IMG/VR virus record: IMGVR_UViG_3300020122_000058
Coordinates: 1 to 64,000 of that record
Strand: one strand, 5' to 3'
DNA: 64,000 nucleotides
Source of the DNA: a virus
The notes below the pieces were generated by a model. It was not told the origin of the DNA. It did no database searches and was given only the letters and a program-made list of their open reading frames with translations. The position numbers and the translations under genes were made by a program. Shown here one piece after another: positions 42,866 through 61,706 of the stretch (the stretch's first letter is position 1; each line of letters opens with the position of its first letter).

Positions 42866-45263
42866 GTCCGTTTCCCAGCTTTGGTGGTTGTAGTTGATCG
42901 CCCCACTCTGTTTCTCCGTACAGCTTTTCCCAAGCCTTGCGTGCTTCGTTCAGCGCCGGTATTTCCCAGAAGTACGTGCGCCCTTCTACCTTGCGCATGA
43001 ACCCGTCGTTGGTAGGTTCTTCCCAGCTTGCCATCATCTGCACCGCGCGCAGCTTTGGGCATACCTTGCGCAAGAAGCGCCCCAGTGCCGTCTGATTGCC
43101 GCGCCGTGACACGTTGAAGCGCCGGGTGTACTCAACGTAATCGTCCACTAGCGCATCCTTGCGGATCTGCTCCATCCAGTCTTCAGTGCCGGTGCGCAAT
43201 AGGCGACCGTCTTCCAACTTCTGAAACCACCACTCCTCTTCTACGTTGAGCGAGAGCAGCTTCTGCTCTTGCAGCGCGGATGTCTGCGGTACTGCGCGCA
43301 CGTTGAAGCCGGAGATGTCAATAGTCTGGAGGTGATGCAGCAACGCTTCATAACCACCAGCTTCCATCTGTGCATCTATGGCCGCAAAGTATGCGGCGTC
43401 CTGCTTCTTGTCATCTGAAACGTCCAGCACAAAGTACCGGCGCTCATCGCCGCCTGCCGGTACAACGTGCTGGTCATTGGAAGACATGATCAGATGTATG
43501 AAGTTGGGTGCGCTTTCTGCATCCACACCCTTGGCTTCAATGGTCACCATTTCTTCCGTGATAAGTGTGTTAAGAATGCTTCGATGTTTTTTGTCCCCGG
43601 CGTAGAAAGCCTCATCCGCAAATAGCACGACACAGTCTCTGAGGTGGCTGTTGAAATTTCCCACCAGATGGCTACTGTTAGAGATGTGTAGAAAGTGCCT
43701 GCCGAACAGTGCACCAAATGTCTTAGCAGCTTTGCCTTTACCGGTGCCCCGTCCACCCCGTAGTACGATAGCCACTTCTCCAGGGCTGGCAGGATTTTGG
43801 ACGGCTCTCGCCATCCAGCGTATAAGATATTCGTAATGAGTTTTGTTTCCCCGGCACACATTGAGTTCAAGGTGTTCCAGGAATAATCCGCACTCTCCGG
43901 GCCGTTGCTCAAATGCAAATCCGCGCCACAGATTATATGCATTCTTCACCTCTCTGCCGGGGCTGAATACGATGGTTTCAAACTGTCGCCGTTGGGCATG
44001 CCCAAGCCACCACTTGCCGATGGCCATCATGATTGGCTTGCCTTCACTGTCTTGGCCAACCTTGATCAGCTTGTTCATGTAGCGGTTACGGAAGTCCTCA
44101 AACGATTGCCGTGTCAGTCGCGTGCGCCCAAGGAAGCTGGCGTCAGAGACTTCCTCCACCACGCGGCACTTGCCTCCGATGTTGCTGATCACTGCGTGCC
44201 GGTTGTTCAACTGGCTGAGCCAAGGATCAATGGAGTATTCCTTGGCGCGCGCCATCTGCCGCAGCGCGTACTTCTCAATGTTGGAGCCTTTATCCAATAC
44301 GCTGCTGCTTATGCCGTAGTCCTTGTCTGTGATAAGCGAGTAAATCACATCTTCAGGCACGTTCTGCCGGTACAGATTGCACAGTGCATCAAACAGCCAT
44401 GCGCTACGGCTGTTGTCACCTTCCTTGGTTTCCTCAGGGTGGAAGCCCTGCACCACAATGATCTTCACGCGGTCAGGCACTGACCACGCATCCAACTCGT
44501 TGATATCCTGGATGCGCTCTACGTTGCTGCTTACCTTGACGGTGGTGGCGTGCCCTGCTGGGCCGCTGTCATCCTTCAACTGCACAGGTGCAGCTTTGAT
44601 GAAGGCATTCAGCGGGTACACCAAGTCTTCAGCAAACTTGGTCACCTTTGCCAGTGCGGGCTTGCGGCCTTTCTTCTGCTTCTTGGCATCAGGGATATTG
44701 ATAGAACCCGGCAGCCGCAAAATGCGATCCACGTTGTGGCAGTTGTCACCTCCGAAGATCAACTCTAGCTGCACGTTGTACAGCTTGGCCTCTTCGTAGA
44801 TGGCTTCTTCACCGTTGATCTCTACCGGCTGGTCCAGTTTCCAGAATGCTTGGTAGCCACCGCCCGAGAACAGGATGACGCTTGGCGGCGGCACACCTTG
44901 CGGAAGCTTCTTGGTCAGCAATTCAAGGATACGCTCCAGTTCAGACTTCAGGTTCTCTGCCGCGTCTTCATCAGGCTTCGGCGGGCGCGCGTCTATGTCA
45001 ACGTGCAGCCAATTCATTGACTTGATGTTTTCGCGACTGGCCTTCTGGTTGAATTCGCGCATCACGGGGTTGATGCCGAAGTACAGATTGAATTTGCCGT
45101 TGCGCTCCTTGATCCAGGGTTCTAGATCAGCGAATGTTTCCTTCGTGAACAGCTTGCCCTGAATTGATTTCTTGTCAGGCTTGATCGCCGTAAGCGCCCA
45201 AGGGCCTTCCGGGTACATTCTGACCAGAAAATCTACGGCAGCTTTGGTATCTGGTGTGGGCAT
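42846..45263 (-). CDS. DNA primase / SF3 helicase fusion (RepB-prime/AEP-like N-domain plus D5/P4-type NTPase)
   Basis: 805 aa. The N-terminal LYFGINPV ... WLHVDIDARPP looks primase-like. The Walker A is VLRGGRGTGKGKAA and the Walker B-like motif is VVLFADEA. The size and layout are those of phage primase-helicases. Confidence 0.75.
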   Translation of the reverse strand: MPTPDTKAAVDFLVRMYPEGPWALTAIKPDKKSIQGKLFTKETFADLEPWIKERNGKFNLYFGINPVMREFNQKASRENIKSMNWLHVDIDARPPKPDEDAAENLKSELERILELLTKKLPQGVPPPSVILFSGGGYQAFWKLDQPVEINGEEAIYEEAKLYNVQLELIFGGDNCHNVDRILRLPGSINIPDAKKQKKGRKPALAKVTKFAEDLVYPLNAFIKAAPVQLKDDSGPAGHATTVKVSSNVERIQDINELDAWSVPDRVKIIVVQGFHPEETKEGDNSRSAWLFDALCNLYRQNVPEDVIYSLITDKDYGISSSVLDKGSNIEKYALRQMARAKEYSIDPWLSQLNNRHAVISNIGGKCRVVEEVSDASFLGRTRLTRQSFEDFRNRYMNKLIKVGQDSEGKPIMMAIGKWWLGHAQRRQFETIVFSPGREVKNAYNLWRGFAFEQRPGECGLFLEHLELNVCRGNKTHYEYLIRWMARAVQNPASPGEVAIVLRGGRGTGKGKAAKTFGALFGRHFLHISNSSHLVGNFNSHLRDCVVLFADEAFYAGDKKHRSILNTLITEEMVTIEAKGVDAESAPNFIHLIMSSNDQHVVPAGGDERRYFVLDVSDDKKQDAAYFAAIDAQMEAGGYEALLHHLQTIDISGFNVRAVPQTSALQEQKLLSLNVEEEWWFQKLEDGRLLRTGTEDWMEQIRKDALVDDYVEYTRRFNVSRRGNQTALGRFLRKVCPKLRAVQMMASWEEPTNDGFMRKVEGRTYFWEIPALNEARKAWEKLYGETEWGDQLQPPKLGNGHDRPAF

Positions 45264-45582: not shown

Positions 45583-45968
45583 GCGGTCAGCTCTTTTGCG
45601 ATGAGGCCGTTACGCCAATGTTTCAGGGCTTCTTTTTCAAGTACGATACGTGTAACGCGGCCAACGTACAGCGCTGCTCTATCACCAGAAAACAGCATCC
45701 ATTCATGGCCGATCTGCCAGAGCAGGAATACGTTGCCGCCCTGCGCCCAGCGACGCATATGCCAGACGCGCTGTTTCTGCGTGTAGTGAGGCAGCAGCAC
45801 GGGAGACTCGTTGGCATTCTCTGGCCAACGGCGCAGCCACTTCAACTCCAACCAGCCCTCAACATAGTTGATGTCCGGCGTGCCGGGGTGGCAAGGATTC
45901 TCTACGCGCACAGGATCTAGAGAGCGTACTGCTCTCCGCACCGTGTGCGCCATGGTGTGTTCTGACAT
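45495..45968 (-). CDS. PD-(D/E)xK nuclease (VRR-NUC-like)
   Basis: 157 aa. The motif GTPDINYVEGWLELKW has the form D...E-x-K. Its 3' end overlaps the next gene by 88 nt. Confidence 0.55.
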   Translation of the reverse strand: MSEHTMAHTVRRAVRSLDPVRVENPCHPGTPDINYVEGWLELKWLRRWPENANESPVLLPHYTQKQRVWHMRRWAQGGNVFLLWQIGHEWMLFSGDRAALYVGRVTRIVLEKEALKHWRNGLIAKELTACLSNSRIVNASSLIAGEEERLKPKQRRG

Positions 45969-46441
45969 CAGATTGCCCTTACCGGCACTTCAGGCTGATC
46001 CTGATAGCGCCCCTTGTACCCACGTGTGTGGCCATTCAATTCGTTGAACACCACCTGCGCGATGGGCATTCCCGGATGCAGTTGAAAGTGATCTTGGTGG
46101 CCCACGTACATCAACTCCAGCGTGATGTGACCGTACCATCCAGGCTCTAGCGTGGTGGTGGGCTGCCACAAGCCCAAGCGAACGAGCGTGGATTTGTTGT
46201 ACACGTGGGCGATCACGTCTGTCGGTATGAACACCTTCTCCAGACTGACAGCCAATTTCTGCACGAGCCTTGGCAGCGCTGCGATGCTTGAGTGATGATT
46301 GTGGCTCAGCCTGATATCGTAGCTGGCTTCACACAGGCCGTATGAAAGATCAAAGCCATCCACCTTGACGCGTTCCTTGGTCCAGATGGCTGGTTCAATC
46401 TTGATGCGCTTCTGAATTTCATCTGCTGTGAGACCGGACAT
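45968..46441 (-). CDS. dcd: dCTP deaminase / dUTPase-superfamily enzyme
   Basis: 157 aa. SYDIRL ... NKSTLVRLGLWQPTTTLEPGWYGHITLELMYVG ... LHPGMPIAQVVF lines up with E. coli Dcd (GRSSLARLGL ... IDPGWSGCIVLEF ... LRPGMLIGALSF). Confidence 0.75.
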   Translation of the reverse strand: MSGLTADEIQKRIKIEPAIWTKERVKVDGFDLSYGLCEASYDIRLSHNHHSSIAALPRLVQKLAVSLEKVFIPTDVIAHVYNKSTLVRLGLWQPTTTLEPGWYGHITLELMYVGHQDHFQLHPGMPIAQVVFNELNGHTRGYKGRYQDQPEVPVRAI

Positions 46442-46452
46442 TGGTTTCCTCT

Positions 46453-48477
46453 CTATGCCGCCTTTTTGACTTCGCCCCAGCTTGGGCCAACTTCCACGTC
46501 CACGCGGAAGGGCACCTTTGCCGGATACACAAACTGCATGATATTAGAGATCTCTCTTGCCTCTTTCACCTCTCCGACTGATGAGTTTAACTCATCGTGA
46601 ACTTGAAGTTGCAGGTAGTGCCCTGCCGCATCTACTTCTACCATCGCCTTCTTGACTTGGTCTGCGCTGCTGCCTTGGATCAAACGGTTCAGCGCCTTGT
46701 GCACCCAGTCATATCCGCCGTCACCAAGTTCAGGGAAGTGCAGGTGCCTTCCACCGATGGTGATAATGTAGCCGCGCTTGGTTGCCGTCTTGCTGACTTC
46801 TTTTGCCAGCTTGCGGATGAATGGGGCGCGATTGTCAAACGTATTCAGAATGCGTTGGCCTTCTTCACCGGCTGCTTCGTAGATATAGCGCTCAGGATAT
46901 TCACGCCCTGCCTTGTAGGCGTCAAACTTATTGGCGAAGTATTCCGTACGGCGCTCTCTACCGCGCCCGATCACAAGCGCCCAGCGAGTGGGAAGATTTA
47001 GATCATGACACAGCTTGGCACCGCCTTCGCCGTAGCACAGCCCAAGATAAATGCATTTGCACACATCACGTGCACGCTTGAATTCCTCCGGCGTCATGGC
47101 GTTGGCAGCGGCTTCGCCATGAATAAGCCGCGTCATAAAGTCGTGATTGTCCAGGTTTGGATTGTCGCAGTACGCTTGGCAGGCTTCAGCGCCACCCGGC
47201 AAATTTATGAGACCGGCAAAGTGTGTGGTCCAACGCGGCTCCTGCTGGCTGTAGTCGTTGCAATCCCATGTAGCCCCTGCCTCTGGAATGTAGATCTTGC
47301 GCCACATCTTGGCAAATTCATCACGTGCCGGTTGCTGCTGCATGTTGGGATGCACACAACTCAGGCGTCCGTACCGTGCGCCCTTGTGGTCTTGCCCATC
47401 CTCTGTCGCAGCACGCATCTGGTTGAAGCTGCAATGGATGCGGCCATTGGTCATGTACTTGCGGATGCTGGCTGCAAAGGTGGTACGCAGCTTGTTCACC
47501 TTGCGAGCGCGCGCAATTGCCTTAGCCACCGGGTGATTGATTTCACCAAGCACGTCCTTATCTATGTGCGGCTTGCCGATGCTGGTCACATCCAGCTTGA
47601 TGCCGATGGCGTGCAGCGCTGGTGCTAGAGCATCAGCCTTCCATACATTGCCGATGCCGATGTCATAGCCGGTTTCCTCCTTCACCAGCTTCAGCGCTTT
47701 GGCTTCTTCTGCGAAGGACCATGCTTCCACCTTGGTCAAGTGATCTTGGTCAATAAGTATGCCGCGCCTGCGCATGCGCACCAGCACGGGCGTCACCTGA
47801 GACTCCAGGTTGTAAATGTCCCACAGGTTGCGATCGTCTATGATGCGCTCTTGCCTGCGCAGCACTTGCAACGGGCGCTGAGTATCCACCTCACAGTATT
47901 GGCCAACGAAGCGACCGGGAAGCTGCCACAGGCCCTTCTTGTGGAAACTCTTCTTTTTCTTCTCCGTCTTGCTCAGATAGACGTTGGCTGCTTCCAGCAG
48001 CATCTTCTCATCTTTACCCGGCAAGCCATGCCGCGCGCAGATAGAGTCCAGGTCGTAGTCATCCTGCAATTCATCTATCAGAGGCTCCGCGATCTGCACA
48101 TCACGGAAGTATTTCACATTCTTGTATTCAATCTCCTCCTCTGACAGGTAATCCAAATCGTAGTCCAGCTTGGCCCCTACGATTTCCCCTTTGAATGCCT
48201 TCGCTTGGGCTTTCAGATAGCGCTTCACCTGCTTCAGATCTAGGTTGTCACCGCCCTGATGGCGCACCGGCAGGTAATGACTGGGGCCATCCTCAATGGT
48301 GAAACCAAAGCCCACCACGTAACCGCCACGGCGCACGCCGATGCCCAAGGTGCCAAGGCTTTCATCGCGCGTCTCTACGTCCACACAGACGCGCTTGGCT
48401 TCCCGCCAATTCGGCAGAGCCGACATGGCGGGAAGCTTCCAACTTGTCTCAGGCACGAAGAGCGGTAACTGGGTCAT
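46453..48477 (-). CDS. family A DNA polymerase with 3'-5' exonuclease domain
   Basis: 674 aa. The Exo I motif is CVDVETRD and the Pol motif C is LQVHDEL. The other palm and finger regions appear in the usual order. Confidence 0.85.
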   Translation of the reverse strand: MTQLPLFVPETSWKLPAMSALPNWREAKRVCVDVETRDESLGTLGIGVRRGGYVVGFGFTIEDGPSHYLPVRHQGGDNLDLKQVKRYLKAQAKAFKGEIVGAKLDYDLDYLSEEEIEYKNVKYFRDVQIAEPLIDELQDDYDLDSICARHGLPGKDEKMLLEAANVYLSKTEKKKKSFHKKGLWQLPGRFVGQYCEVDTQRPLQVLRRQERIIDDRNLWDIYNLESQVTPVLVRMRRRGILIDQDHLTKVEAWSFAEEAKALKLVKEETGYDIGIGNVWKADALAPALHAIGIKLDVTSIGKPHIDKDVLGEINHPVAKAIARARKVNKLRTTFAASIRKYMTNGRIHCSFNQMRAATEDGQDHKGARYGRLSCVHPNMQQQPARDEFAKMWRKIYIPEAGATWDCNDYSQQEPRWTTHFAGLINLPGGAEACQAYCDNPNLDNHDFMTRLIHGEAAANAMTPEEFKRARDVCKCIYLGLCYGEGGAKLCHDLNLPTRWALVIGRGRERRTEYFANKFDAYKAGREYPERYIYEAAGEEGQRILNTFDNRAPFIRKLAKEVSKTATKRGYIITIGGRHLHFPELGDGGYDWVHKALNRLIQGSSADQVKKAMVEVDAAGHYLQLQVHDELNSSVGEVKEAREISNIMQFVYPAKVPFRVDVEVGPSWGEVKKAA

Positions 48478-48896
48478 CAGAACGGGATCTTATCGTTCTC
48501 AGATTGTGCAGCGTCAATCAGAGAATAGATGGCGCTGCGTGCAACACCGAGATGGTCCAATGTTCGCCATGAAGCCAGTAGGCAGCATATCTCCTTCTCG
48601 GTATCGTTCAGATCATTGGCTCCTGCGTACACCGTGGTCACCAGAATGATCACCTGATCATTGAGCGCTGAACGATTTTTGCGACCATGCTTCTCCGCAT
48701 TGTCAATCAGCTTGTCAATGTAGTGCACGGCCTTTTCAAGACCCAGCACACCTTCTGGCTTCTTGCGCCACCGTGTCACGTACTTAGTGGCACACGCTTC
48801 ATGCCAGCCCATACCGATGTGATCCACCCAGTCCCAATGCTGGTAGTCACTGCGATAGTGGGTGCCCCCCACTTGTCTCTCATTCACCGCGTTCAT
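48477..48896 (-). CDS. DUF3310-like protein
   Basis: 139 aa from ATG 48896 (ATGA overlap). VGGTHYRSDYQHWDWV ... ATKYVTRWRKK resembles DUF3310 by recollection. Confidence 0.55.
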   Translation of the reverse strand: MNAVNERQVGGTHYRSDYQHWDWVDHIGMGWHEACATKYVTRWRKKPEGVLGLEKAVHYIDKLIDNAEKHGRKNRSALNDQVIILVTTVYAGANDLNDTEKEICCLLASWRTLDHLGVARSAIYSLIDAAQSENDKIPF

Positions 48897-49483
48897 GCTG
48901 TTGCTGCCTTGCCTGCTTCTGCGTTGCGGATGGCTTCGTGTTCTTCTGCCAGCGTGCGCCCTGTGTTGGGCACCACCTGCACGCACCGGTCGTCCCATAG
49001 CTCCATCATCAGCCAGTCCTTCACGTTGGTGATGGGCAGGGCGCGGCCGATCTCACGAAGACACCATTGCTCAATGGCATCGCGCACCGCTGCAAGATCA
49101 TGCGGTGTGCCGTCTTCATTCTTGTCCTTCTCGGTCACGCGCGCTGTGAAGATGCGCACGTCGCGCCCTTGGGCCAGCCATGCCTTGATGCGTGCCACCA
49201 TGACAGGGATCGGCTCGCCGATGTGGTAGGGGCCTTGCCACTTGGTGTAGATGGCAAGCGTTCCATCTAAGTCCACACCGATCCAACCGGCATGTTTCTG
49301 GATGAAGGGATCAAACTTGTTGCACTCATCTCCTTCATCTAATGAATGCGGTCCACACGAGCATTCCACATAATGCTCTCCGTCATCGTGTTGTTTCACG
49401 GTGTACACCTGTCCCTTCTTCAGACATAGCGCATCACCGGTGTACACGACTTCATCGTCTTTGCAGAATTTACTGACTGGCAT
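48893..49483 (-). CDS. HAD-superfamily phosphatase (nucleotidase-like) with small N-terminal domain
   Basis: 196 aa from ATG 49483 (RBS aaggag). The HAD motif I is GVDLDGTLA. A later segment reads VRIFTARV. Confidence 0.6.
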   Translation of the reverse strand: MPVSKFCKDDEVVYTGDALCLKKGQVYTVKQHDDGEHYVECSCGPHSLDEGDECNKFDPFIQKHAGWIGVDLDGTLAIYTKWQGPYHIGEPIPVMVARIKAWLAQGRDVRIFTARVTEKDKNEDGTPHDLAAVRDAIEQWCLREIGRALPITNVKDWLMMELWDDRCVQVVPNTGRTLAEEHEAIRNAEAGKAATA

Positions 49484-50051
49484 TGGTAGTCTCCTTTGGC
49501 ATATCAACAGCCCCCAGCTTGCGCAGCGCATCCGTTACCGCGAGGGCTTGAGTAACGGCATCATCAACGGCGCTGTGCTTCAACGGGTTTTCTGGCCACT
49601 GCACATCAGGGCACAACCAGAACAAGGTGCGCGTGTCACGAACGGCCTTGTAGCTCCAGGGGTAGCTCAGCTTCAGCTTCTTGAATGACCATTCCAAGAT
49701 CGGAATGTCAAACCCGGCACCGTGCGACCATACACATTGCACGTTCTGCCAGTTGCCCCGTTGCAGGTAGATGAGCGCATCACGCAGAGTCATCTGGCTA
49801 TCAGCCAAGAACGGTGCGCGTGCCTCATCAGATTGGCCCAGCCACCACCTGACGGCTGACCAGTCAATCTGCATACCGCTGTTCAGAGCAGAAGCAGGAT
49901 CAATGAAATACGAGAACTTGTGCTTGATGGGATCCACTGCTCCAGGCTGAAACAGGCAGCCGCCGATCTGCGTGATCACCGCGTCCGTGTTTGTGCTCAA
50001 TGTCTCCAGGTCAAGCATGACATGGAGTTCCTCGCTGCCTATCTTAAGCAC
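49470..50051 (-). CDS. DnaQ-like 3'-5' exonuclease
   Basis: 193 aa from GTG 50051, or 182 aa from ATG 50018. HVMLDLETLST is a DEDD Exo I motif. WSHGAGFDIPIL and H-x4-D (HSAVDD) follow. Confidence 0.65.
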   Translation of the reverse strand: MLKIGSEELHVMLDLETLSTNTDAVITQIGGCLFQPGAVDPIKHKFSYFIDPASALNSGMQIDWSAVRWWLGQSDEARAPFLADSQMTLRDALIYLQRGNWQNVQCVWSHGAGFDIPILEWSFKKLKLSYPWSYKAVRDTRTLFWLCPDVQWPENPLKHSAVDDAVTQALAVTDALRKLGAVDMPKETTNASQ

Positions 50052-51099
50052 TGGCTGCTCCTTTGGTCATACGCCAGTTGTCGTGACGACGGCTAAGCCA
50101 GCCCAAAGCAGCCGCGCGCCAATCGCAGGGCACGCAGTAGTCATCAAGGTAGGCCATGGGTTCGGTGTACTTGGCCTCACCCTTCACGGACTTGAACATC
50201 AGATGAGCCGTGAAGAGCGGCATGGCCAGCTTCGTGAAGAACTGAGTGTCGTACAGGCCACGCGCATCCTTCTTGAAGAATTCTTCAAGGTCATCGTGGA
50301 ACACGTCCACGCCTTCAGGGCCAATGAGCGGGAATGGTTCAACGTAACCCAAGCCGTACTGACACGGCGTGTCCAGCGCCGCGCGTTCCAGCAGCGGTTC
50401 CATCACTTCCAGATAGGCGTGATAGTTGTTAGACACGTGGTAGTAGATGCCCACCGGAACGCCGATGCGCGCTGCCATGTACTCCTGAAGAACGCTGAAG
50501 TGCACGGCGTTGGCACCGCACAGGCCCCAGATGAGATCGTTGCTGCGGCAACACACCGTCATATCCAGCGTGCCGCTTGGGCTGATGCCGAAGTAGATAT
50601 GAGTATTGCACGGCAAATCCTTGGAGTTGAGACCAAGATCGTGCGCAGGGTCCCACATGCCCACGACTGAACGGCGATCCGTAGGGTCGGCTTTCAGGCG
50701 TTCAGCTACGATGGCGAGCTGGTCAATGGGTGTTCCCAATACTTCTTCAGTGTCCTCGCTATGCGGCACAAACCAATTCTTCCACCTATACCCATACGCA
50801 CCGTTCAGCGTGACGCCATCATCACTGAACGTTTCCATGCGCTGCACAAACTGACGCACGAAGGCGACATCGTTGCGGCCTGCAAGCATCCACAGCGCTT
50901 CAAAGAAGTGGAAGAACGGGTTATCGTCGCGCCCGACGTGGAACAGCACGCGCTCCGTGGGGCGCTCAAAGATGGTGGTTACAGGGCCGCTCATCCTGAT
51001 CACAGGGCCGTTGCGGCTTTGGTTGCGCACGCCGTGCAGTTTCAACGCTTGGATGCCCTTGGGCAATGCTTCATGAACGTTACGAACTTGGATCTCCAT
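50044..51099 (-). CDS. thymidylate-synthase-fold enzyme (ThyA or dUMP hydroxymethylase)
   Basis: 351 aa. TS-family motifs appear in order: NPFFHFFEALWMLAG, DQLAIV, DRRSVVGMWDP, catalytic DLPCNTHIYF, CCRSNDLIWGLCGANAVHF and NNYHAY. An Asn aligns with the uracil-reading Asn of ThyA. Confidence 0.75.
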   Translation of the reverse strand: MEIQVRNVHEALPKGIQALKLHGVRNQSRNGPVIRMSGPVTTIFERPTERVLFHVGRDDNPFFHFFEALWMLAGRNDVAFVRQFVQRMETFSDDGVTLNGAYGYRWKNWFVPHSEDTEEVLGTPIDQLAIVAERLKADPTDRRSVVGMWDPAHDLGLNSKDLPCNTHIYFGISPSGTLDMTVCCRSNDLIWGLCGANAVHFSVLQEYMAARIGVPVGIYYHVSNNYHAYLEVMEPLLERAALDTPCQYGLGYVEPFPLIGPEGVDVFHDDLEEFFKKDARGLYDTQFFTKLAMPLFTAHLMFKSVKGEAKYTEPMAYLDDYCVPCDWRAAALGWLSRRHDNWRMTKGAASA

Positions 51100-51108
51100 A
51101 GGTTCCTC

Positions 51109-51297
51109 TCAGAGTTCAACTTCTAGATCAATGCGATCTGCACGTGTGGGATCCACAATGCCGACCAACCTTCCAGGCTTACGCAGGGCAGTTTCTACTT
51201 CCCTGCTGATGTCCAGCAATGCGGTGTTTCGCTTTTCTGGATCTCTGTGTTCCCCTTCTGTCTGCGCAGGGAAAATCATGATGGCTATGCGCATCAT
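51109..51297 (-). CDS. hypothetical protein (62 aa)
   Basis: ORF track, with a coupled start. Confidence 0.45.
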   Translation of the reverse strand: MMRIAIMIFPAQTEGEHRDPEKRNTALLDISREVETALRKPGRLVGIVDPTRADRIDLEVEL

Positions 51298-51761
51298 TCT
51301 CTTGCCTCCATGTGTACGTACACCCCTTCTTTCACGCGACGCAGCACACCGCTTTCAGACATGCGGAACATGATGGAGCGCACATCGTCTGTAGAAACCA
51401 GCCCCGTGCGCTTTTCCACATTCTTCTTGATTGCAGAGTAGGTAATTTCGCCTTTGACTTTGCCTATCTCCTCCCTGATAACGTCTGTCTTGCTCATTCT
51501 GCCGGTACTGATGCGCAAGTCATCAGTCTTGGGCATGAAGCTGCCGGTGTAGTTGAGCCGGTACAGGTCCACCAGCCCAGCGGCAGCGCGCAACCCGGCG
51601 CGCTCGGCTGGCATCTTCTCAGCAGCCAGCCTGAACATTCCGTTCAGGGCATCCAGCATCTTGACAATGCGGTTGCGCGAACAACGCTCTTCCAGCAGAA
51701 GCAGTATCTGCTCATCAGAAAGATGGAAGGCGCGGTGCGCCTCCAACGATGCCTTATCCAT
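51294..51761 (-). CDS. winged-helix DNA-binding-like protein
   Basis: 155 aa. The C-terminal ITYSAIKKNVEKRTGLVSTDDVRSIMFRMSESGVLRRVKEGVYV looks like a wHTH. Confidence 0.5.
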   Translation of the reverse strand: MDKASLEAHRAFHLSDEQILLLLEERCSRNRIVKMLDALNGMFRLAAEKMPAERAGLRAAAGLVDLYRLNYTGSFMPKTDDLRISTGRMSKTDVIREEIGKVKGEITYSAIKKNVEKRTGLVSTDDVRSIMFRMSESGVLRRVKEGVYVHMEARE

Positions 51762-52024
51762 CAGTAGAGATCCTTCTCCAACTCTGCACGGCGCTCAGCC
51801 GGTGCCGTTTCAACAATGCTGCGCGCCAGTACCCCAGCCGGGATCTGCAGAAGCGTGGACATTTCCGCCAGCAGAATACGGCGGCATGCCTTCAATGATT
51901 GATCCTTGACTGCCGGAACCGCCGTCAGTACAAGCTGCACCGCGATGCGCAGCATCTCTGCATGCGCCTTGCGTAGTTCAGCCTGTCTGTCTGCCGGTAG
52001 CGGGTTCAATTTGGCCACGTTCAT
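51761..52024 (-). CDS. hypothetical protein (87 aa)
   Basis: ORF track, coupled at both ends. Confidence 0.5.
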   Translation of the reverse strand: MNVAKLNPLPADRQAELRKAHAEMLRIAVQLVLTAVPAVKDQSLKACRRILLAEMSTLLQIPAGVLARSIVETAPAERRAELEKDLY

Positions 52025-52788
52025 TTGCCGTATGCCTTACGCCACTGCACCACGACGTCCTTGCGCTCGCCTTCCATGCCTTTCCATTCGGCCTTCTTGA
52101 CGCGCACAGATACGAAGTCAGGATGCAGTGCAGCCAGTCGTTCAGCGGAATAGTTCTGCGTCTCCAGGGTACGCCACAGACTGGCACCGCCTGCGCTATT
52201 GCTTGGGCTCGGGTTGATGCAGGCATCCACGTTCAGCCGGTTGGGGTGGCCCTTGCGCAGCAGTTGCAGGGTCATGTGGAAATCATCCATGCTGAACTTG
52301 TGGTTGACACCCTTGGTGAAATCACAGCCTGCCTTCAGCACTGCTTTTGGATTGTAGGCAAGCACATGCATCAGCCGCGTTACTTCCATGTGCGGGCCGG
52401 GGTGCTGCCAGTTCAAACTGCGGATGGTGATACCGGCGTGCGTGAACCCGCTTTTCACCCATTCCTCCAACAGCCCAAAGGCGGCTTCATGCTGCGGCAC
52501 CGTGATGGGCTTGATCTTGCGCTCCGCATCCTTGTAGAAGAAGTCCAGGTCATCATCAAGCATGACCAAGAACTTCTCGTTCTTGTTCTGCTCCAAGATC
52601 CATTGGCGTGTGGCTGCAATGCCCTTGGCATCTGTGCCGATGATCTTGGTGTTACGATGATGGAATTCGTAAGAACCAACTTCGCCTGTCGGCACGACAA
52701 GCGTAGTCAACTCTCTGAGACTGGACGGCAAATTCCGCAGGGTCTTCTGCGTGGATTTACGCCCCATGGTGGGTATGAATATGAGCAT
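52021..52788 (-). CDS. GT-A fold glycosyltransferase (candidate DNA-base glycosyltransferase)
   Basis: 255 aa with the RBS aaggag. It has an N-terminal beta-strand start (LIFIPTMGR) and a DxD motif (VMLDDDLDFF). It lies between the TS-fold gene and the 296-aa gene. Confidence 0.55.
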   Translation of the reverse strand: MLIFIPTMGRKSTQKTLRNLPSSLRELTTLVVPTGEVGSYEFHHRNTKIIGTDAKGIAATRQWILEQNKNEKFLVMLDDDLDFFYKDAERKIKPITVPQHEAAFGLLEEWVKSGFTHAGITIRSLNWQHPGPHMEVTRLMHVLAYNPKAVLKAGCDFTKGVNHKFSMDDFHMTLQLLRKGHPNRLNVDACINPSPSNSAGGASLWRTLETQNYSAERLAALHPDFVSVRVKKAEWKGMEGERKDVVVQWRKAYGK

Positions 52789-52799
52789 ATTGGTTCTCC

Positions 52800-53066
52800 T
52801 TATTGCGTCCGGCGCGGCAGTTCAGAGCGTGCTGCGGCCTGCACCTGCGGCTTCAGCACCTTGTATATCTTCGGCGGCTTGCGTTCCACCTTCATGGGAA
52901 ATGCGCTGCGGATCAGAGTAAGAATGTCAAACGTGAAGAAGTGCGCAAGCGTGCGCCCACGCGGCGCAGTGAATACAGACTTGAACATCTTGCGGCGCTG
53001 GCTGCCATCTCCGTGCAGGCCAGCGGCCATGTAGCGGCGGATGCGCAGTGGTTTGTAAACAGTCAT
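52800..53066 (-). CDS. small basic protein (88 aa)
   Basis: ORF track, with the RBS gagagga upstream of ATG 53066. It fills the gap between the GT gene and the 296-aa gene and is very Arg/Lys-rich. Confidence 0.45.
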   Translation of the reverse strand: MTVYKPLRIRRYMAAGLHGDGSQRRKMFKSVFTAPRGRTLAHFFTFDILTLIRSAFPMKVERKPPKIYKVLKPQVQAAARSELPRRTQ

Positions 53067-53068
53067 CG

Positions 53069-53959
53069 TTATCCTCTCTGGTGATACTGGCTGCGGGGTT
53101 TGCCTTCCTTTAGGCGGACGCGTTCGTACTTGTCAAATTCACAGAGCGTGAATTGAATATCGGTGGGTGCAAGCCAGCCCTTGTTCTTCCAGAAGCCAGC
53201 CTGCGCCGCATGAAGTTTCAGAAGATCCTTCAGCCCCACCTTTTTCAGGAGCTCAGGGTGCACCCTTGGGCTTTCACCGGAGAACACGCGCATCAGCCCA
53301 CGCTGCGCTCCAGGCCCAATGGGGGTCCAGTCTCCGTAGTCGCGTGGCCAGCTACCATCAATGTGGTCAGTGCGTTTCTTCGGCCAGAAGTTTGGAAAGA
53401 ACATGGTGTCCAGCGTGACTTCCTTGCCCATGAAGCCGCTGCCGCCAAAGCCCTGCACGTGTGAAAGCTGATCAAGAACAGATTCCCAGCTTCCTTTGCT
53501 CAGCCCCATCATGTTCTGCAATTTCTTGCGCGCTTCCCACACGCCCTTGATGAACATGTCCACCACCACGTCTTCCTTCGGCGCGCTGATGCCTTGGTTG
53601 GTGATAACGTAGGCACCCGTGAATACCTTCTGCCCTTGGCCAGCGCGCTCCTTGGCGACAGCCTTTAGATGCGCAGGCTTAAAGTCGTTCTGCCAGCCGA
53701 TGGCGGTGTAGTACTCTTCACTGCCGAAGTAGCGCGCAATGGCGCAGTTCAGCCAGATCAACTCTGGTGGTGCATCCGGATGACGCGCGTATATCTTCTT
53801 GAATTCCTGCGTTGTGCGATCATACTCGCGCCGCACGTTGGTGAACTTGTACGTCTGCAGAATTGGATCCTTGGTCCAGGGCCATGGCTTGCCAGCCGCC
53901 TTGGCAAGTCTGATCTGCTCACGCTCTGCAGCGTAAGCGTAGAATTCCTTCGCTCTCAT
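53069..53959 (-). CDS. all-alpha protein, possible alpha-glutamyl/putrescinyl-thymine pyrophosphorylase-like (aGPT-Pplase-like) DNA hypermodification enzyme
   Basis: 296 aa from ATG 53959 (ATGA overlap, RBS aagga). The N-terminal EREQIRLAKAAGKPWPWTKDPILQTYKFTNVRREYDRTTQ matches my recollection of that family. This is unverified. Confidence 0.4.
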   Translation of the reverse strand: MRAKEFYAYAAEREQIRLAKAAGKPWPWTKDPILQTYKFTNVRREYDRTTQEFKKIYARHPDAPPELIWLNCAIARYFGSEEYYTAIGWQNDFKPAHLKAVAKERAGQGQKVFTGAYVITNQGISAPKEDVVVDMFIKGVWEARKKLQNMMGLSKGSWESVLDQLSHVQGFGGSGFMGKEVTLDTMFFPNFWPKKRTDHIDGSWPRDYGDWTPIGPGAQRGLMRVFSGESPRVHPELLKKVGLKDLLKLHAAQAGFWKNKGWLAPTDIQFTLCEFDKYERVRLKEGKPRSQYHQRG

Positions 53960-55059: not shown

Positions 55060-56796
55060 TTAGTCAGCACAAGTTTTCCGGCCCATATCATCAATTGTGC
55101 AGGCTGCACCTTCAGGAACAGCCGTCAGCACGGCCCCGCGTTTGCAGTCTGTGCGGTACGTGGTGCAGCCCTTGGCACCGCCGTAGTAGGCATCCACATA
55201 AATCTTCTTGAATTCCTCCCAGTTGGTGCTGGGCGGCACGTTGCACGTCTTGCTGACGGCGCTGTCCACGTGCTTCTGGGCTGCCAGCAACACGGCGAGA
55301 TGCTCCTGCACTGTTACCTGATCTGCCGTCTTGCCCTTGGTGCCGTACACGCGATAGGCGTAATCAGGAAGTGTTTCAGTGCGTTCGCCTTCAAATTCAA
55401 TGACGGTGCGTTTCATCTCCAACGCGAACACCGGCTCAATGCCACCACTGATGTTATCTGCGCTGGTTGCAATGGTGCCGGTGGGCGCGATGCTTGTGAG
55501 ATGGCTGTTGCGGATGCCGTACTTGTAGATGAGTTCCTGCACATCTGCATCCAGGGTCTGAATGAATTTGCCCTGCATGTACTTGTCACGGTTGAACAGC
55601 TTGAACGGCCCCTTCTCCTTCGCAAGTAACGCGCTGGCACGGTAAGCCTCGTTCTTCAACGTGCTGAGGATGGTTTCTTCCACCGCAATGAATTCTTCAC
55701 TGCCGTATGGATGGCCCATGGTTTCAATCGCATTGGCCAAGCCTGCAACGCCCAAGCCGATGCGGCGCTTGGCCTTGGCTTCTTTTTCCTGCTCGTAGAG
55801 CGGGTAAATGGTGCGATCAATCACGTTGTCCATGGCGCGCACCACGTGCGGAATGTCCGCCTTAAACGCACCAAGGTTGTAGGCCCAATTATCGCTTTCA
55901 CCCTTCGTCAAGAACTGAGGAAGATTGAAACTGCCCAACAGGCACGCACCGAACGGAGGCAATGGCTGCTCGCCGCATGGGTTGGTCGCAGCGATGTATT
56001 CACAGTACCAGAGATTGTTCATCTGGTTGATGCGGTCAATGAACAGCACGCCGGGTTCTGCCCAATCCCAAGTTCCGCGCATCATGGCGTCCCACAATTC
56101 GCCGGGGTCAACGGTGTTGTAGGTTTCACCTTCCCACACCAGATCAAACGGCTTGCCTGTGCGCAGTGCTTCCATGAACGCATCGGTAACGCCGACGCTG
56201 AGATTGAAGCCGGTCAGCTTGTCTGCATTCTGTTTGACGTGAATGAATTCCATGATGTCGGGATGATCAATGCGCAGCACGCCCATCTGTGCGCCACGGC
56301 GGTGGCCGCTGCTGGCGATGGCTTGCCCGCCTGCGCTGTAGTAGCTCATCCACGCCACGGGGCCGCTGGACTTGCTCTGCAGCTTCTTGATGGTAGCGCC
56401 CCTTGGGCGCAAGGTGGACCAATCATAACCAATGCCACCGCCCATGCGCATGGTCTGCAACGCCTGCCCAGCACGGGATTGAATGCTGCCGTCACCATCC
56501 AGCAGAGTGTCCTCAATAATGCCGCTCACAAAACAGTTGAACGCAGTAACAGCGCGCGAGGAACCGACACCTGATTGCACGCGTCCGCCGGGTAGGAAAC
56601 GCATGCCAAGGTAGATATCGCGGAAGGCGTAGAAGTCTTCTTCCTTGTCCTTCAGCACATTCGCAAGTCTGTTGCCGACTTCGCGGAATGTTTCTCCAGG
56701 TCCACGGTATTTCTGCGCGTGAAGTTCATCGCAATAAGCAAGCTGAGGCCCAGCCATCTTGAATCCTTTGTTGACGGTTGTTGTGAGGGTAGGCAT
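55060..56796 (-). CDS. nrdJ: ribonucleotide reductase, class II (B12-dependent) type
   Basis: 578 aa from ATG 56796. The active-site motif is NPCGEQPLPPFGACLLGSFNL, and a C-terminal Cys pair is present (ACTIDDMGRKTC). No NrdB-like partner is seen in the window. Confidence 0.75.
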   Translation of the reverse strand: MPTLTTTVNKGFKMAGPQLAYCDELHAQKYRGPGETFREVGNRLANVLKDKEEDFYAFRDIYLGMRFLPGGRVQSGVGSSRAVTAFNCFVSGIIEDTLLDGDGSIQSRAGQALQTMRMGGGIGYDWSTLRPRGATIKKLQSKSSGPVAWMSYYSAGGQAIASSGHRRGAQMGVLRIDHPDIMEFIHVKQNADKLTGFNLSVGVTDAFMEALRTGKPFDLVWEGETYNTVDPGELWDAMMRGTWDWAEPGVLFIDRINQMNNLWYCEYIAATNPCGEQPLPPFGACLLGSFNLPQFLTKGESDNWAYNLGAFKADIPHVVRAMDNVIDRTIYPLYEQEKEAKAKRRIGLGVAGLANAIETMGHPYGSEEFIAVEETILSTLKNEAYRASALLAKEKGPFKLFNRDKYMQGKFIQTLDADVQELIYKYGIRNSHLTSIAPTGTIATSADNISGGIEPVFALEMKRTVIEFEGERTETLPDYAYRVYGTKGKTADQVTVQEHLAVLLAAQKHVDSAVSKTCNVPPSTNWEEFKKIYVDAYYGGAKGCTTYRTDCKRGAVLTAVPEGAACTIDDMGRKTCAD

Positions 56797-56797
56797 G

Positions 56798-57058
56798 TTA
56801 GGCACCTTTCGTAAGAGTGTTAAGCAGGGTACGCAGTTGCGCTGCCATTTGCTCAACCTGCTCAACTTGCTTAACCAGCAACGTGGGGCTTATGGCGCGG
56901 CGCACCAGTGCGCCTACGAGCTCGCCGTGTATGCGGCCCTGCAACGTGCAGATCTTGTCAAGCTGTGCAGCGATCACAGAAGATGGCAACGGAGCAGACT
57001 TACCGGGTGCGCCGGTCGGCTTCGGGCGTCTTGCTGCTTTCTTGACGCGGATGGTCAT
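56798..57058 (-). CDS. hypothetical basic protein (86 aa)
   Basis: ATG 57058 overlaps the upstream stop (ATGA). Confidence 0.45.
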   Translation of the reverse strand: MTIRVKKAARRPKPTGAPGKSAPLPSSVIAAQLDKICTLQGRIHGELVGALVRRAISPTLLVKQVEQVEQMAAQLRTLLNTLTKGA

Positions 57059-57420
57059 AGCTCGTAGCTCCACGTGCGCTTGGCGAAGCCGGGCCAGACG
57101 CGTGCAAACTCTTTCATGATGTCTTCACGTGGCAATCCTTTCTCAAGGAGTTCCACGTACAGAAGCTCCAAGCGGTCTGCAGTCAGACCGAGTTCAGTGA
57201 TGTACAGCGCGCTGAACTTGGGAAACACCAACACAGCTACGTGCACGGAGAATGCCGGAGGCGGAAGTGCCTTCACCACCATTTCCTTCAACTCTGCAAG
57301 CATATCTTGACGCATTGCTGGCGTCATCACCTTGCCGACGTATGGCGTCATGATTGCTTCCATAGGTCCCTGAAGATCAACGCCTCTGAAGAATACCTTG
57401 TATTCAGTGTCTGCAGTCAT
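57055..57420 (-). CDS. hypothetical protein (121 aa)
   Basis: ORF track. Confidence 0.55.
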   Translation of the reverse strand: MTADTEYKVFFRGVDLQGPMEAIMTPYVGKVMTPAMRQDMLAELKEMVVKALPPPAFSVHVAVLVFPKFSALYITELGLTADRLELLYVELLEKGLPREDIMKEFARVWPGFAKRTWSYEL

Positions 57421-57748
57421 ATCGGAAACTCCTGCCCTTCCTGGCTTGGTTTATTTCTCGCGGCACCATCTCCAAGTGCCATGGGTTCACGCATAGGGAA
57501 TTCTCGCATAGGTGATCCAGGTGCATGCCAGCAATCCACACCTGCCGGTAGATGGCGACGAATGAGAACTTGTGCGCGCGTACAACTTTGTCCCCAACTG
57601 AGAACGAGCCGTACCATTGCGTGTTTCCCTGCCCACGTGACTTGGCACCGCGCCATATCCAGCATTCCGTTTCCAGCGGGCCGCATTGCAGTACAATCTT
57701 CTGCGCGAAGCGTTCTATATCCTCCTGCGAGAATACGAACGACATCAC
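57404..57748 (-). CDS. HNH endonuclease (free-standing homing-endonuclease-like)
   Basis: 114 aa. The motif HLDHLCENSLCVNPWHLEMV is the H-N-H core. Confidence 0.75.
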   Translation of the reverse strand: MMSFVFSQEDIERFAQKIVLQCGPLETECWIWRGAKSRGQGNTQWYGSFSVGDKVVRAHKFSFVAIYRQVWIAGMHLDHLCENSLCVNPWHLEMVPREINQARKGRSFRYDCRH

Positions 57749-58992
57749 ATCCTCACTATCTTCACGCGCTTGGCTGCGCGTGTCAGGCCGGTGTATAGGT
57801 GCCGGTGCCGGTTCTCTCGGAACACATAGCTCTCATCAAAGAGCAACACGTTGTCCCACTGGCTGCCTTGGGCTTTGTGCACCGTCAGCGCACCGCCGTA
57901 GTCAAACTCCTGGGCATCCTTCTTGTGGTACCACGGCAGCTTCTCGCCGCGCTTTTCAAAGTAGTGCGTGTGGCTGGTCACGAAGATTGGTTTACCGCCT
58001 TCATCCTCAGGATGAAGGTGTAAACCAATGGTGCTGTCTGGTGTAGGGGTACCAGCTTCCACTACGAAATAGATCGCGCCGTTGAGCAGACCAACTTCGT
58101 GGTCATTGCGCAGACATACCAAGCGATCGCCCGTTACCGGCATCGTCTGGTATGGCTTGTCCTTGAACAGTTTCAGCTTGCGAAGCTTGACGTTGCTGTC
58201 TTTCCGTGTCTCATTCTTGCCGACAAGTATCTGATCTGCAGCGATTACATCTTCCAGATCAACTGCTTTCACTACCGACGACTCACCATAATTCCCAAGG
58301 TTCAACGATTTACCCTGCCGCACTTGGGCTGCCATCCACAGAATGGGATTGTCTTCAGCCTGCCGGTGTATCTCAGTCAGCTGAAAGTCAGGTTCACGAT
58401 TGGTGAAATAGCCGCAGCCGTACACAGGCGGCAACTGGAACGGATCGCCCAGGACGAGGACCTTCACTCCGAAGGATAGAAGGTCTCGTCCTAGTGGCTC
58501 ATCAACCATGGAAATCTCATCTACCACTGCCAGCTTTGAATTGCGCAAGGTGCTGTCAGGATTCAGCACAAACATCGGTGCCTTCAGCGCGTTCTCTTCA
58601 ATGCGGATCTCTTCGCGCAGCTTCTGCACCTTGGGCATTTCTTCCGGATCAAAGGTTGGATCGCCGTTTGACTCTGAGTGCAATTCATAGAGCATCTCAG
58701 CAAGACTCTCCTCCATCTCACGCAGTTTGGCCTTGGACTTGTCACGAGAAATGTAAATGCGTGAATGGATAGTGGTGGCGTCTGGGCAGCCCTTCTGGCG
58801 CATCACATAGGCTGCCTTGCCGGTGTAGCTCATGAAGTCTATCTGGCCTTCCACACCTGCTGCAAACTCTCGTGCAAGCGTGGTCTTGCCGGTGCCCGCA
58901 AACCCGGCAAGGTAGAACACCTGCTGGCTGGGGTCATGCAGCCATTCGCCGACGCGCTTCAGCGCTGTTTCTTGTTGAGGTGACCAGAGCAT
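57745..58992 (-). CDS. SF1 helicase (RecD/Dda-like)
   Basis: 415 aa. The Walker A is LAGFAGTGKTT and the Walker B is AVVDEISMV. The C-terminal ALTVHKAQGSQWDNV is a typical SF1 motif V/VI region. Confidence 0.8.
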   Translation of the reverse strand: MLWSPQQETALKRVGEWLHDPSQQVFYLAGFAGTGKTTLAREFAAGVEGQIDFMSYTGKAAYVMRQKGCPDATTIHSRIYISRDKSKAKLREMEESLAEMLYELHSESNGDPTFDPEEMPKVQKLREEIRIEENALKAPMFVLNPDSTLRNSKLAVVDEISMVDEPLGRDLLSFGVKVLVLGDPFQLPPVYGCGYFTNREPDFQLTEIHRQAEDNPILWMAAQVRQGKSLNLGNYGESSVVKAVDLEDVIAADQILVGKNETRKDSNVKLRKLKLFKDKPYQTMPVTGDRLVCLRNDHEVGLLNGAIYFVVEAGTPTPDSTIGLHLHPEDEGGKPIFVTSHTHYFEKRGEKLPWYHKKDAQEFDYGGALTVHKAQGSQWDNVLLFDESYVFRENRHRHLYTGLTRAAKRVKIVRM

Positions 58993-61295: not shown

Positions 61296-61361
61296 TCTCC
61301 GTTAATGGCTGTACCGCTTTTATTTAAGCCACGTCGCGCGGTGGTGCCAAGAGTACGACGT

Positions 61362-61389
61362 ATTACTGAATGACGTGTCATTCAGTAAT
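61362..61389. promoter_or_regulatory. 28-bp palindrome (13-bp perfect arms)
   Basis: attactgaatgac-gt-gtcattcagtaat spans the stop codon of the 61378-61704 gene, upstream of the SSB-like gene. Confidence 0.45.
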
Positions 61390-61704
61390 CTTCATAACCG
61401 CTGCGGCATAGCGCAAATGTGCAGCGGTAAGTTTGTCTTTGGATTCTAGTCCCTCCAGTCTTATGCTGGAACGTATGGCATCTTGCGCAGAAATAATCCC
61501 CACGCGCTCTGCATCGGGTAGATCCACAAATCCCCCATGACGTTCTATCAACTTGGCGATAGGGGCTAGCGCTTTTTCTAATTCAGCTATGCGGTCTGCC
61601 GCCTGTTTCATGGTGATGAACGCCTGAGAGTGCTGTGTGATGCCTAGATTGGCAAAGCCAGCGAGTCTCTTCAAATCAGCTTTCAGGTTAGGAACAACTG
61701 CCAT
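61378..61704 (-). CDS. hypothetical protein (108 aa), A/T-richer cassette
   Basis: ORF track. Its composition is visibly lower in G+C than the flanks. Confidence 0.55.
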   Translation of the reverse strand: MAVVPNLKADLKRLAGFANLGITQHSQAFITMKQAADRIAELEKALAPIAKLIERHGGFVDLPDAERVGIISAQDAIRSSIRLEGLESKDKLTAAHLRYAAAVMKITE

Positions 61705-61706
61705 GG

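Follow-up and report, generated by a model that had tools for sequence, protein, structure and literature searches.

Thymidine hypermodification has been characterised in the phages Pseudomonas M6/PaMx11, Salmonella ViI, Delftia PhiW-14 and Bacillus SP10 (Lee et al. 2018, 2021). Their systems draw on a kinase for 5-hydroxymethyldeoxyuridine (5-hmdU) in DNA (5-HMUDK, PF18748), amino-acid:DNA transferases (AADTs, PF18724) and enzymes dependent on pyridoxal phosphate (PLP), radical S-adenosylmethionine (rSAM) or flavin adenine dinucleotide (FAD), and they yield amine- or ether-linked amino-acid derivatives. Kinetoplastids make base J with the JBP1/2 thymidine hydroxylases, dioxygenases that act on T in DNA, and the base-J glucosyltransferase JGT; base J occupies ~1% of T. 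T-even phages and the TAGT pathways associated with TET/5mYOX (Burke 2021, Pyle 2024) make a 5-hydroxymethylpyrimidine, in their case 5-hydroxymethylcytosine (5hmC or hmC), and glycosylate it in DNA. Here we describe a block of genes at positions 50044-53959, minus strand, of the 64-kb phage genome segment IMGVR_UViG_3300020122_000058 (positions 1 to 64,000 of that record; hereafter, the window). The block is very probably a DNA hypermodification island, and we lean towards O-glycosylated 5-hmdU, made without a kinase, as its product.

The window has a GC content of ~56%. Its plus strand carries structural genes (about 3.7-41 kb), its minus strand a module for replication and nucleotide metabolism (41-64 kb). 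Within the latter, the block consists of the following features, in transcription order:

53069..53959, minus strand: standalone all-alpha PF18723 protein (HMUDK_hel, formerly aGPT-Pplase clade 1) with no kinase domain, 296 aa (PF18723, E 1.4e-36).
52800..53066, minus strand: very basic open reading frame (ORF), 88 aa, pI 11.7, which fills the gap between the PF18723 gene and the glycosyltransferase (GT) gene and starts 2 nt past the upstream stop codon.
52021..52788, minus strand: GT-A glycosyltransferase of the TAGT/base-J-GT-like DNA-glycosylating family, 255 aa (TAGT PF20691, 51.8 bits; phrog_842, E 7e-36).
51109..52024, minus strand: three small unconserved ORFs (87, 155 and 62 aa in order of transcription) between the GT and the thymidylate synthase (TS) homologue.
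50044..51099, minus strand: thymidylate-synthase-fold enzyme, predicted dUMP 5-hydroxymethyltransferase of the M6 gp58 type, 351 aa (PF00303, E 1.6e-21; phrog_5131, E 2e-111).

All genes run in the same direction and sit close together (no gap exceeds 11 nt, and overlaps measure 1-8 nt), a spacing that one would expect if they are transcribed together. An earlier reading made from the letters alone, without database searches (the sequence-only reading), had singled out four of these ORFs, namely the TS homologue, the GT, the 88-aa basic protein and the 296-aa protein. All four do lie on the minus strand at the positions it assigned, and the GT is, as it said, four genes away from the TS homologue, being the fourth gene after the three small ORFs. 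The 88-aa ORF has no match in Pfam, PHROG or NCBIfam and is unlike the small ORFs found at the same position in relatives; the three small ORFs have no Pfam or PHROG family match and no homologues in related loci. We treat these four as lineage-specific cargo outside the conserved system.

Compared with the 5-HMUDK systems, the island holds a TS homologue of the same family, 45% identical to M6 gp58 over the full length, and a PF18723 protein 32% identical to M6 gp55 (E 8e-36). M6 DNA carries a 5-hmdU-derived base (PMC5889632). As in M6, the island sits inside a replication module with a family A DNA polymerase (PolA), a ribonucleotide reductase (RNR) and a deaminase, and the phage itself is a distant relative of Mesyanzhinovviridae. 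Unlike the 5-HMUDK systems, the window lacks PF18748, PF18724, PLP, rSAM and FAD enzymes and has a GT-A instead; the predicted product would be an O-glycoside. With base J the island shares a JGT-like GT-A predicted to glycosylate 5-hydroxymethyluracil (hmU or 5hmU) in DNA, the likeness to JGT being taken from phage GT-A enzymes as described in 10.1101/2023.12.21.572611. It differs from base J in that the TS homologue would make hmU on the nucleotide, ahead of replication; no JBP/TET gene was seen in the window, and substitution could be genome-wide. The GT has the Pfam family, fold and motifs of the TAGT pathways, and the order of events, a 5-hydroxymethylpyrimidine made and then glycosylated in DNA, would be common to these and to T-even hmC glucosylation. 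Here, however, the predicted acceptor is hmU and not hmC (Asn197, the deaminase and PF18723 point this way), and the precursor would come from a TS homologue, where TAGT pathways use a methyltransferase and a dioxygenase. A PF18723 protein is present as well; the descriptions of the TAGT and T-even pathways that were consulted do not mention one.

Alignment to E. coli ThyA and T4 gp42 shows that the TS homologue retains the catalytic C164, which is invariant and lies in the motif DLPCNTH, and R185-S186-x-D188. The motifs quoted in the sequence-only reading are thus real, and the Asn of GLCGANAVHF, which it took to read uracil, is N197 and aligns with E. coli N177. Asn occupies this position in all 11 phage homologues aligned, M6 gp58 included, whereas the cytosine-specific enzymes carry Asp (Asp179 in T4 dCMP hydroxymethylase gp42, one column off in the MAFFT alignment, and an Asp in MilA). 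Studies of the ThyA N177D and T4 gp42 D179N mutants reportedly show that this N/D switch determines the preference for U or C. The protein scores far below every NCBIfam ThyA equivalog cut-off (e.g. 67 bits versus 327), its best PDB sequence match is the CMP hydroxymethylase MilA, and it has a C-terminal extension of ~100 aa in common with M6 gp58 and with PhiJL001 gp24, to which it is 42% identical over the full length. Lack of Trp80 of ThyA was also considered as a mark of hydroxymethylases; none of the phage homologues has this residue, yet T4 gp42 does, hence it is not diagnostic. Judged by its relatives, its conserved residues and the hmU-specific genes beside it, the TS homologue would hydroxymethylate dUMP, the reaction inferred for its M6 relative too.

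The GT exceeds the gathering cut-off of Pfam PF20691 (51.8 bits versus 27.5) and covers positions 2-185 of the 205-position profile. Its AlphaFold2 (AF2) model has a GT-A fold (pLDDT 95.5), and the top PDB match of the model is TarP (6h4m, E 8e-7); a PDB search with the sequence returned noise only. Residues R10, D78-D79-D80, D169 and R206 are invariant, F170 is found in at least 90% of sequences, and D168-D169-F170 agrees with the published R...DDD...EDY/F motif. The report that published it (10.1101/2023.12.21.572611) describes these motifs, together with TarP as top PDB neighbour, for phage GT-A enzymes with glycosylating activity on 5hmC in DNA; according to it, the same enzymes structurally match JGT. 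The TS homologue lies 0.9 kb downstream of the GT, and the same adjacency is seen in 9/9 related GT loci. We therefore predict, from family and context, that the GT transfers a sugar to a hydroxymethyl base in DNA. Opposite the GT lies an antisense ORF of 303 aa (52123-53034, plus strand); other long opposite-strand ORFs overlap real genes across the region. None has family support, and they are by-products of the 56% GC content.

The 296-aa protein matches positions 5-278 of the 281-position PF18723 profile. Its ORF can be extended to 305 aa; the database gene, P0121, corresponds to the 296-aa form. The sequence-only reading had tentatively assigned it to the aGPT-Pplase family. The superfamily was right, with a full-length match to PF18723, but this is clade 1 and not the transferase clade 2, since the protein has no match to PF18724 (ADDT, the former aGPT-Pplase clade 2) at E ≤ 0.1. 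GenBank records of the M6-like gene read "aGPT-Pplase1" when older and "5-hmdU DNA kinase helical domain" when newer, BFVD entries keep "Pplase1 ... clade 1", and M6 gp51, a proven glycine:DNA transferase, is the PF18724 "ADDT". In Pfam, the label "5-hmdU DNA kinase, helical domain" misleads: it fits SP10 gp186 and not the family at large. The family comprises 4826 clusters at 50% identity, and among the best 150 most are standalone proteins of ~290 aa. None of the 10 long members checked has a kinase domain and, within the window, the 296-aa protein is neither fused nor adjacent to a P-loop 5-hmdU DNA kinase. As a clue to function, domain fusions were set aside: the 10 long members are uninformative, bar P0320, with an N-terminal HhH-GPD fragment, and P0331, a eukaryote-like protein of 1045 aa with ankyrin and C1 domains.

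The AF2 model of the 296-aa protein (pLDDT 93.3, 15 helices) matches, in BFVD, phiRSL1 ORF231 (TM-score 0.77), SP10 gp186 (TM 0.72) and a PhiW-14 protein (TM 0.71). Its top PDB match is PaMx11 gp46 (8z2n), a 5-phosphomethyldeoxyuridine (5-PmdU) glycinyltransferase, at a weak E of 0.27 and TM of 0.42, followed by QNG1 and the helix-hairpin-helix (HhH) glycosylase MagIII; all PDB matches have E > 0.1 and TM ~0.4. Predicted ADDT proteins in BFVD come somewhat closer (E 0.012, TM 0.54). A PDB search with the sequence gave noise only. Sequence homology between PF18723 and the AADTs was rejected, as the PF18723 alignment was negative against both M6 gp51 and the ADDT alignment (hhalign probability 0.8% for the latter). 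The models thus suggest, weakly, that PF18723 and the AADTs share a fold only. Among very divergent PF18723 members (the window protein, M6 gp55, PhiJL001 gp19 and phiRSL1 ORF231), 25 residues are invariant, including D31, N41, R44, D47, R76, Y117, D184, D207, C273, E274 and K277, and an invariant C273-E274-x-x-K277 lies on the last helix. In gp46, C247 attacks the flipped-out base at C6, with loss of phosphate (PMC11472151). This C247 is invariant in the ADDT alignment and C273 is likewise invariant in PF18723, on the C-terminal helix; the two may hold comparable places. It is probable that PF18723 is an enzyme acting on flipped 5-substituted dU and not a mere "helical domain".

No DNA kinase was found to go with these enzymes. 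A Walker-A scan of all window ORFs of at least 40 aa returned only the primase-helicase (42846-45263) and the RecD-like helicase (57745-58992), and tblastn of the 64-kb window with M6 gp54 (kinase), gp51 (AADT), gp52 (PLP) and gp53 (rSAM) found none of them. Apart from these helicases, the window contains no P-loop kinase or 5-HMUDK, no PF18724 protein or other AADT, and no PLP, rSAM or FAD tailoring enzyme. A gp54 homologue or Walker-A kinase is also lacking from 8 related loci, and the complete PhiJL001 genome encodes no P-loop protein besides helicase and terminase. The kinase-free claim therefore refers to the 64-kb window, out of a source contig of 73.8 kb, and to the relatives. The sequence-only reading had noted no kinase in view, and this holds for a DNA kinase; what it missed is a DUF3310 protein, of a PHROG type labelled "nucleotide kinase", 1.1 kb downstream of the TS gene.

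To compare neighbourhoods, we located the contigs that carry GT homologues (201 clusters). In eight of nine independent GT-bearing phage lineages, including the complete PhiJL001 genome and phiRSL1, PF18723, the GT and the TS homologue occur in this order and without a kinase. A few kb hold all three in the IMG/VR loci L003 and L004 and in L005, L006/7, L008/9, L015, PhiJL001 and phiRSL1 (L numbers designate our loci). In PhiJL001, gp19 (PF18723), gp22 (GT) and gp24 (TS) are 29, 33 and 42% identical to the window proteins. Because the same three families adjoin in many unrelated contigs, the arrangement is not due to chance. Family assignments by profile hidden Markov models (PF00303 for the TS homologue, TAGT PF20691 for the GT, PF18723 for the 296-aa protein) support the core of the sequence-only reading, a 5-hmdU-based DNA hypermodification island, and the conserved gene neighbourhood does so more strongly.

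What varies is the content between the conserved genes. The closest relative, L005, reads PF18723 - GIY-YIG - 107 aa - TAGT - TS. L006/7 has PF18723 - 72 aa - TAGT - 305 aa - TAGT - TS - HD, L008/9 has PF18723 - rSAM/SPASM - methyltransferase - TAGT - TS - HD, and L015 has PF18723 - epimerase - TAGT - TS - HD. In relatives, the stretch between the GT and the TS homologue varies in content and holds GIY-YIG, an epimerase, rSAM/SPASM together with a methyltransferase, or a second GT. Sugar-related genes between PF18723 and TS comprise the epimerase, the second GT, nucleoside diphosphate (NDP)-sugar pyrophosphorylases, a sulfotransferase and a GT-B; GIY-YIG and rSAM/SPASM plus methyltransferase are not obviously sugar-related. 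The pattern is one of a constant core of PF18723 and a TS homologue, to which a 5'-nucleotidase and a deaminase usually belong, paired with a decorating cassette that varies: kinase, AADT, PLP and rSAM in M6, sugar enzymes here. The window differs from the PhiJL001, phiRSL1 and HTVC023P-type pelagiphage clusters, which have the same three families in the same order, in carrying a HAD-type protein for the HD 5'-nucleotidase, a DCD for the dCMP deaminase, and small ORFs of its own.

Several relatives deserve mention in their own right. The jumbo phage phiRSL1 of Ralstonia (NC_010811 161932-178756, L011) has a larger island with PF18723 ORF231, three TAGT paralogues, a 414-aa TS (ORF230), two NDP-sugar pyrophosphorylase/nucleotidyltransferases, an APS-kinase-like P-loop protein and a galactose-3-O-sulfotransferase-like protein, which points to a pyrimidine hypermodification with several sugars, and possibly sulfate, in a phage that is in culture. 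In L008/L009 (7615-11810), a widespread lineage (P0052 is found on 75 contigs), rSAM/SPASM and Methyltransf_21 stand between PF18723 and TAGT. In L016 (8001-11961), rSAM/SPASM and a 329-aa protein of no assigned family take the place of the GT beside the TS homologue. These two cassettes imply further undescribed chemistries on the same core. A marine virus contig (ERZ907637; L014, 9146-10429) has a 427-aa protein with a weak GT-B match (Glycos_transf_1, E 1e-4) between PF18723 and TS; with a GT-B-like protein in the GT slot, the decorating GT can be of either fold.

PF18723 as an obligatory cofactor of the GT was rejected. The complete circular 40.4-kb genome MW202897 (L019), the only such locus among the nine GT loci, has GT, TS and HD and no PF18723 anywhere, so PF18723 is probably not an obligatory GT partner. 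Reconstitutions of phage GT-A activity on 5hmC likewise mention no PF18723 partner, as far as the text consulted shows (10.1101/2023.12.21.572611).

The island is embedded in nucleotide-metabolism genes, all on the minus strand:

55060..56865, minus strand: ribonucleotide reductase, class II-type (PF02867, E 9e-102), which bounds the module upstream.
48893..49531, minus strand: protein with a HAD-type DxDxT motif (GVDLDGTLA), 212 aa (weak PHROG matches to HAD phosphatase regions, E 1e-6 and 1e-5).
48477..48896, minus strand: DUF3310-type protein (phrog_5839, E 1.7e-31; phrog_236 "nucleotide kinase", E 3.9e-11).
46453..48477, minus strand: family A DNA polymerase (PF00476, E 4e-45), syntenic with the PolA beside the module in all related loci.
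45968..46441, minus strand: dCTP-deaminase/dUTPase-fold (DCD-like) protein, 157 aa (PF22769, E 7e-16; phrog_1663, E 8.5e-30).

An exonuclease also lies downstream of the block, with the HAD-motif, DUF3310-type, PolA and DCD-fold genes, and an RNR is found at the same position in PhiJL001, L005, L014 and L015. The DCD-fold protein scores 78 bits against TIGR02274, below the cut-off of 92.8; relatives carry a DCD or a dCMP deaminase at its position, and it likely supplies dU nucleotides to the hydroxymethylase. The start of the DUF3310-type gene was set at an internal Met abutting the upstream stop codon. Its protein has no Walker A motif, its L005 homologue carries PF11753 DUF3310, and we tentatively consider it a candidate kinase at the nucleotide level (5-hm-dUMP). 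Nearly all relatives have an HD/YfbR-like 5'-deoxynucleotidase (PF12917) directly after the TS gene, where the window has the HAD-motif protein, which looks like a non-homologous replacement of the 5'-nucleotidase step, possibly serving dTMP removal.

Other genes of the region were seen in passing. An HNH/His-Me gene of homing-endonuclease type (57404-57748, minus strand) lies between the RNR and the RecD-like helicase, and in L005 a GIY-YIG gene (9083-9670) lies between PF18723 and the GT; both are consistent with mobile-element traffic in the region. At 60441-62755 (minus strand) the window has the Pam3_Gp34-like phrog_2402 and phrog_4786 (labelled "cysteine dioxygenase"), families named after Pseudanabaena phage Pam3. 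Such genes precede the helicase also in L005, L008 and L014-L016, as a shared early-gene array upstream of the modification island.

From gene content, family assignments, conserved catalytic residues, predicted folds, synteny and the lack of a kinase or AADT in the window, we propose a pathway in which each chemical step is a prediction. The DCD-fold enzyme (together with a dCMP deaminase in relatives) would raise the supply of dU nucleotides, and the TS homologue would hydroxymethylate dUMP to 5-hm-dUMP before replication. A nucleotide kinase, possibly the DUF3310-type protein or host kinases, would then act with the host nucleoside diphosphate kinase to give 5-hm-dUTP, from which the phage PolA would incorporate 5-hmdU; the HAD-type phosphatase may deplete competing dTMP. 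After replication, the JGT/TAGT-type GT-A would glycosylate 5-hmdU in DNA at its 5-hydroxymethyl group, drawing on an NDP-sugar of the host. A host donor is suggested because the island has no sugar-nucleotide genes. The product would be a base-J-like O-glycosyl-5-hydroxymethyl-dU, formed with no phosphorylated intermediate, and PF18723, conserved alongside the TS homologue, would act on 5-hmdU or a derivative of it in DNA.

One possibility is that PF18723 is the missing activity that turns undecorated 5-hmdU into thymidine. SPO1 DNA holds hmU only. PF18723 is found in all four thymidine hypermodifiers of Table 3 of Lee et al. (PMC5889632) and is reported there to be absent from SPO1; the same authors call the conversion of 5-hmdU to thymidine in PhiW-14 and SP10 "still unknown". 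A role in this conversion fits the distribution of the family, which is present in PhiW-14, SP10, ViI and M6 (T plus hyper-T) and reported absent from SPO1. It also fits the presence of PF18723 in kinase-free GT systems and its dispensability for the decorating step: M6 gp55 and the C-terminal domain of SP10 gp186 are dispensable in vitro (PMC8989533).

Several points weigh against the proposed pathway. The literature yielded no measured chemistry for this phage or its relatives. Sequence by itself does not separate a hydroxymethylase from a methylase. The acceptor of the GT could be hmU, a group already on hmU, or a molecule other than DNA, and among solved structures the GT comes closest to TarP, a teichoic-acid GT. 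Given its many invariant polar residues, PF18723 may carry out a chemical step that the scheme omits. Finally, a kinase may be encoded in the ~9.8 kb of the contig beyond the window. We therefore weighed other accounts of the island.

One of these keeps glycosylated 5-hmdU in virion DNA and adds that PF18723 is an enzyme acting directly on un-phosphorylated 5-hmdU in DNA via a Cys-C6 adduct, perhaps in the conversion to thymidine considered above; we find this combination doubtful. A kinase-dependent route, in which an unseen kinase phosphorylates 5-hmdU, PF18723 is a Cys-dependent group transferase in the manner of the clade-2 AADTs and the GT glycosylates the attached group, seems unlikely. 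The kinase could come from the remaining 9.8 kb, given that the window is 64 kb of a 73.8-kb contig, from a non-P-loop kinase such as the DUF3310 protein, or from the host. A "nucleotide kinase"-type PHROG protein is indeed nearby, but the DUF3310 protein also occurs in the replication module of kinase-encoding relatives and so is not specific to the kinase-free variant; neither the window, nor the 8 related loci, nor the complete PhiJL001 genome has a gp54 homologue or Walker-A kinase. As to a transferase role, PF18723 weakly resembles the gp46 transferase in fold and has an invariant Cys on its C-terminal helix, at a place perhaps comparable to that of the catalytic Cys247 (PMC11472151), and SP10 is reported without a clade-2 protein yet with a PF18723 domain (PMC5889632 Table 3). 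On the other hand, PF18723 and the AADTs show no relation in sequence when their profiles are compared, and M6 gp55 is unneeded for group transfer in vitro.

If the TS homologue were a dCMP hydroxymethylase, the GT would glycosylate 5hmC, as in T-even and TET-associated systems. Every biochemically tested phage GT-A/TAGT enzyme acts on 5hmC, the GT family bears, in PHROG, the name of the T6 hmC glucosyltransferase, and the best PDB sequence match of the TS homologue is a CMP hydroxymethylase. We nevertheless regard this cytosine route as highly unlikely: Asn197 aligns with the uracil-reading N177 where T4 gp42 and MilA carry Asp, the Asn is constant across the 11 phage homologues including M6 gp58, the accompanying deaminase turns dC into dU nucleotides and would oppose a dCMP route, and PF18723 is known from thymidine hypermodifiers. 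It is most improbable that there is no DNA hypermodification at all, with a divergent thymidylate synthase (the label that PHROG and GenBank give to the TS homologues), a GT acting on a host surface polymer or protein as its neighbour TarP does on teichoic acid, and a DNA-repair-like PF18723 protein, a family without proven function. Against this, very distant phages keep the three genes side by side within a replication/nucleotide module, and TarP likewise tops the PDB neighbours of phage GT-A enzymes proven to glycosylate DNA. Moreover, no ThyA equivalog cut-off is reached by the TS homologue, whose closest relative from a characterised phage is that of M6, a phage that makes 5-hmdU-derived bases.

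The association of these genes has been on record for some time. The 2005 annotation of PhiJL001 already has it, Wittmers et al. 2022 (PMC9599517) explicitly mention the co-location of TS, aGPT-Pplase1 and a "glucosyltransferase" in pelagiphages, and Pyle et al. (10.1101/2023.12.21.572611) count GT-A+ThyS contigs in a metavirome. No report of glycosylated 5hmU in any phage was found in the literature. The sequence-only reading had spoken of a different or undescribed variant. That holds insofar as a GT replaces the DNA kinase and transferase, but the gene association had been described in PhiJL001, pelagiphages and the GT-A+ThyS contigs. The island is thus a divergent new member of a recognised arrangement, and what would be new relative to the characterised systems is the predicted kinase-free glycosyl chemistry.

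All characterised thymine-hypermodifying phages use a DNA kinase, and the island described here most likely does without one. If the proposed pathway is correct, this would be a third route to thymine hypermodification, beside the kinase/amino-acid-transferase and T-dioxygenase routes. It would apply the T-even logic, in which the nucleotide is hydroxymethylated and the DNA glycosylated, to the uracil base, and would arrive by convergence at the base J chemistry of trypanosomes, as the first viral base-J analogue. The DNA of such a phage should resist many restriction enzymes and possibly CRISPR nucleases. It would also be awkward to sequence and clone, and 5hmU labelling would gain a candidate tool enzyme in the GT. 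For the PF18723 family, with its thousands of clusters, the kinase-free context offers a clean genetic background for a question about its function that has stood since 2013-2018.

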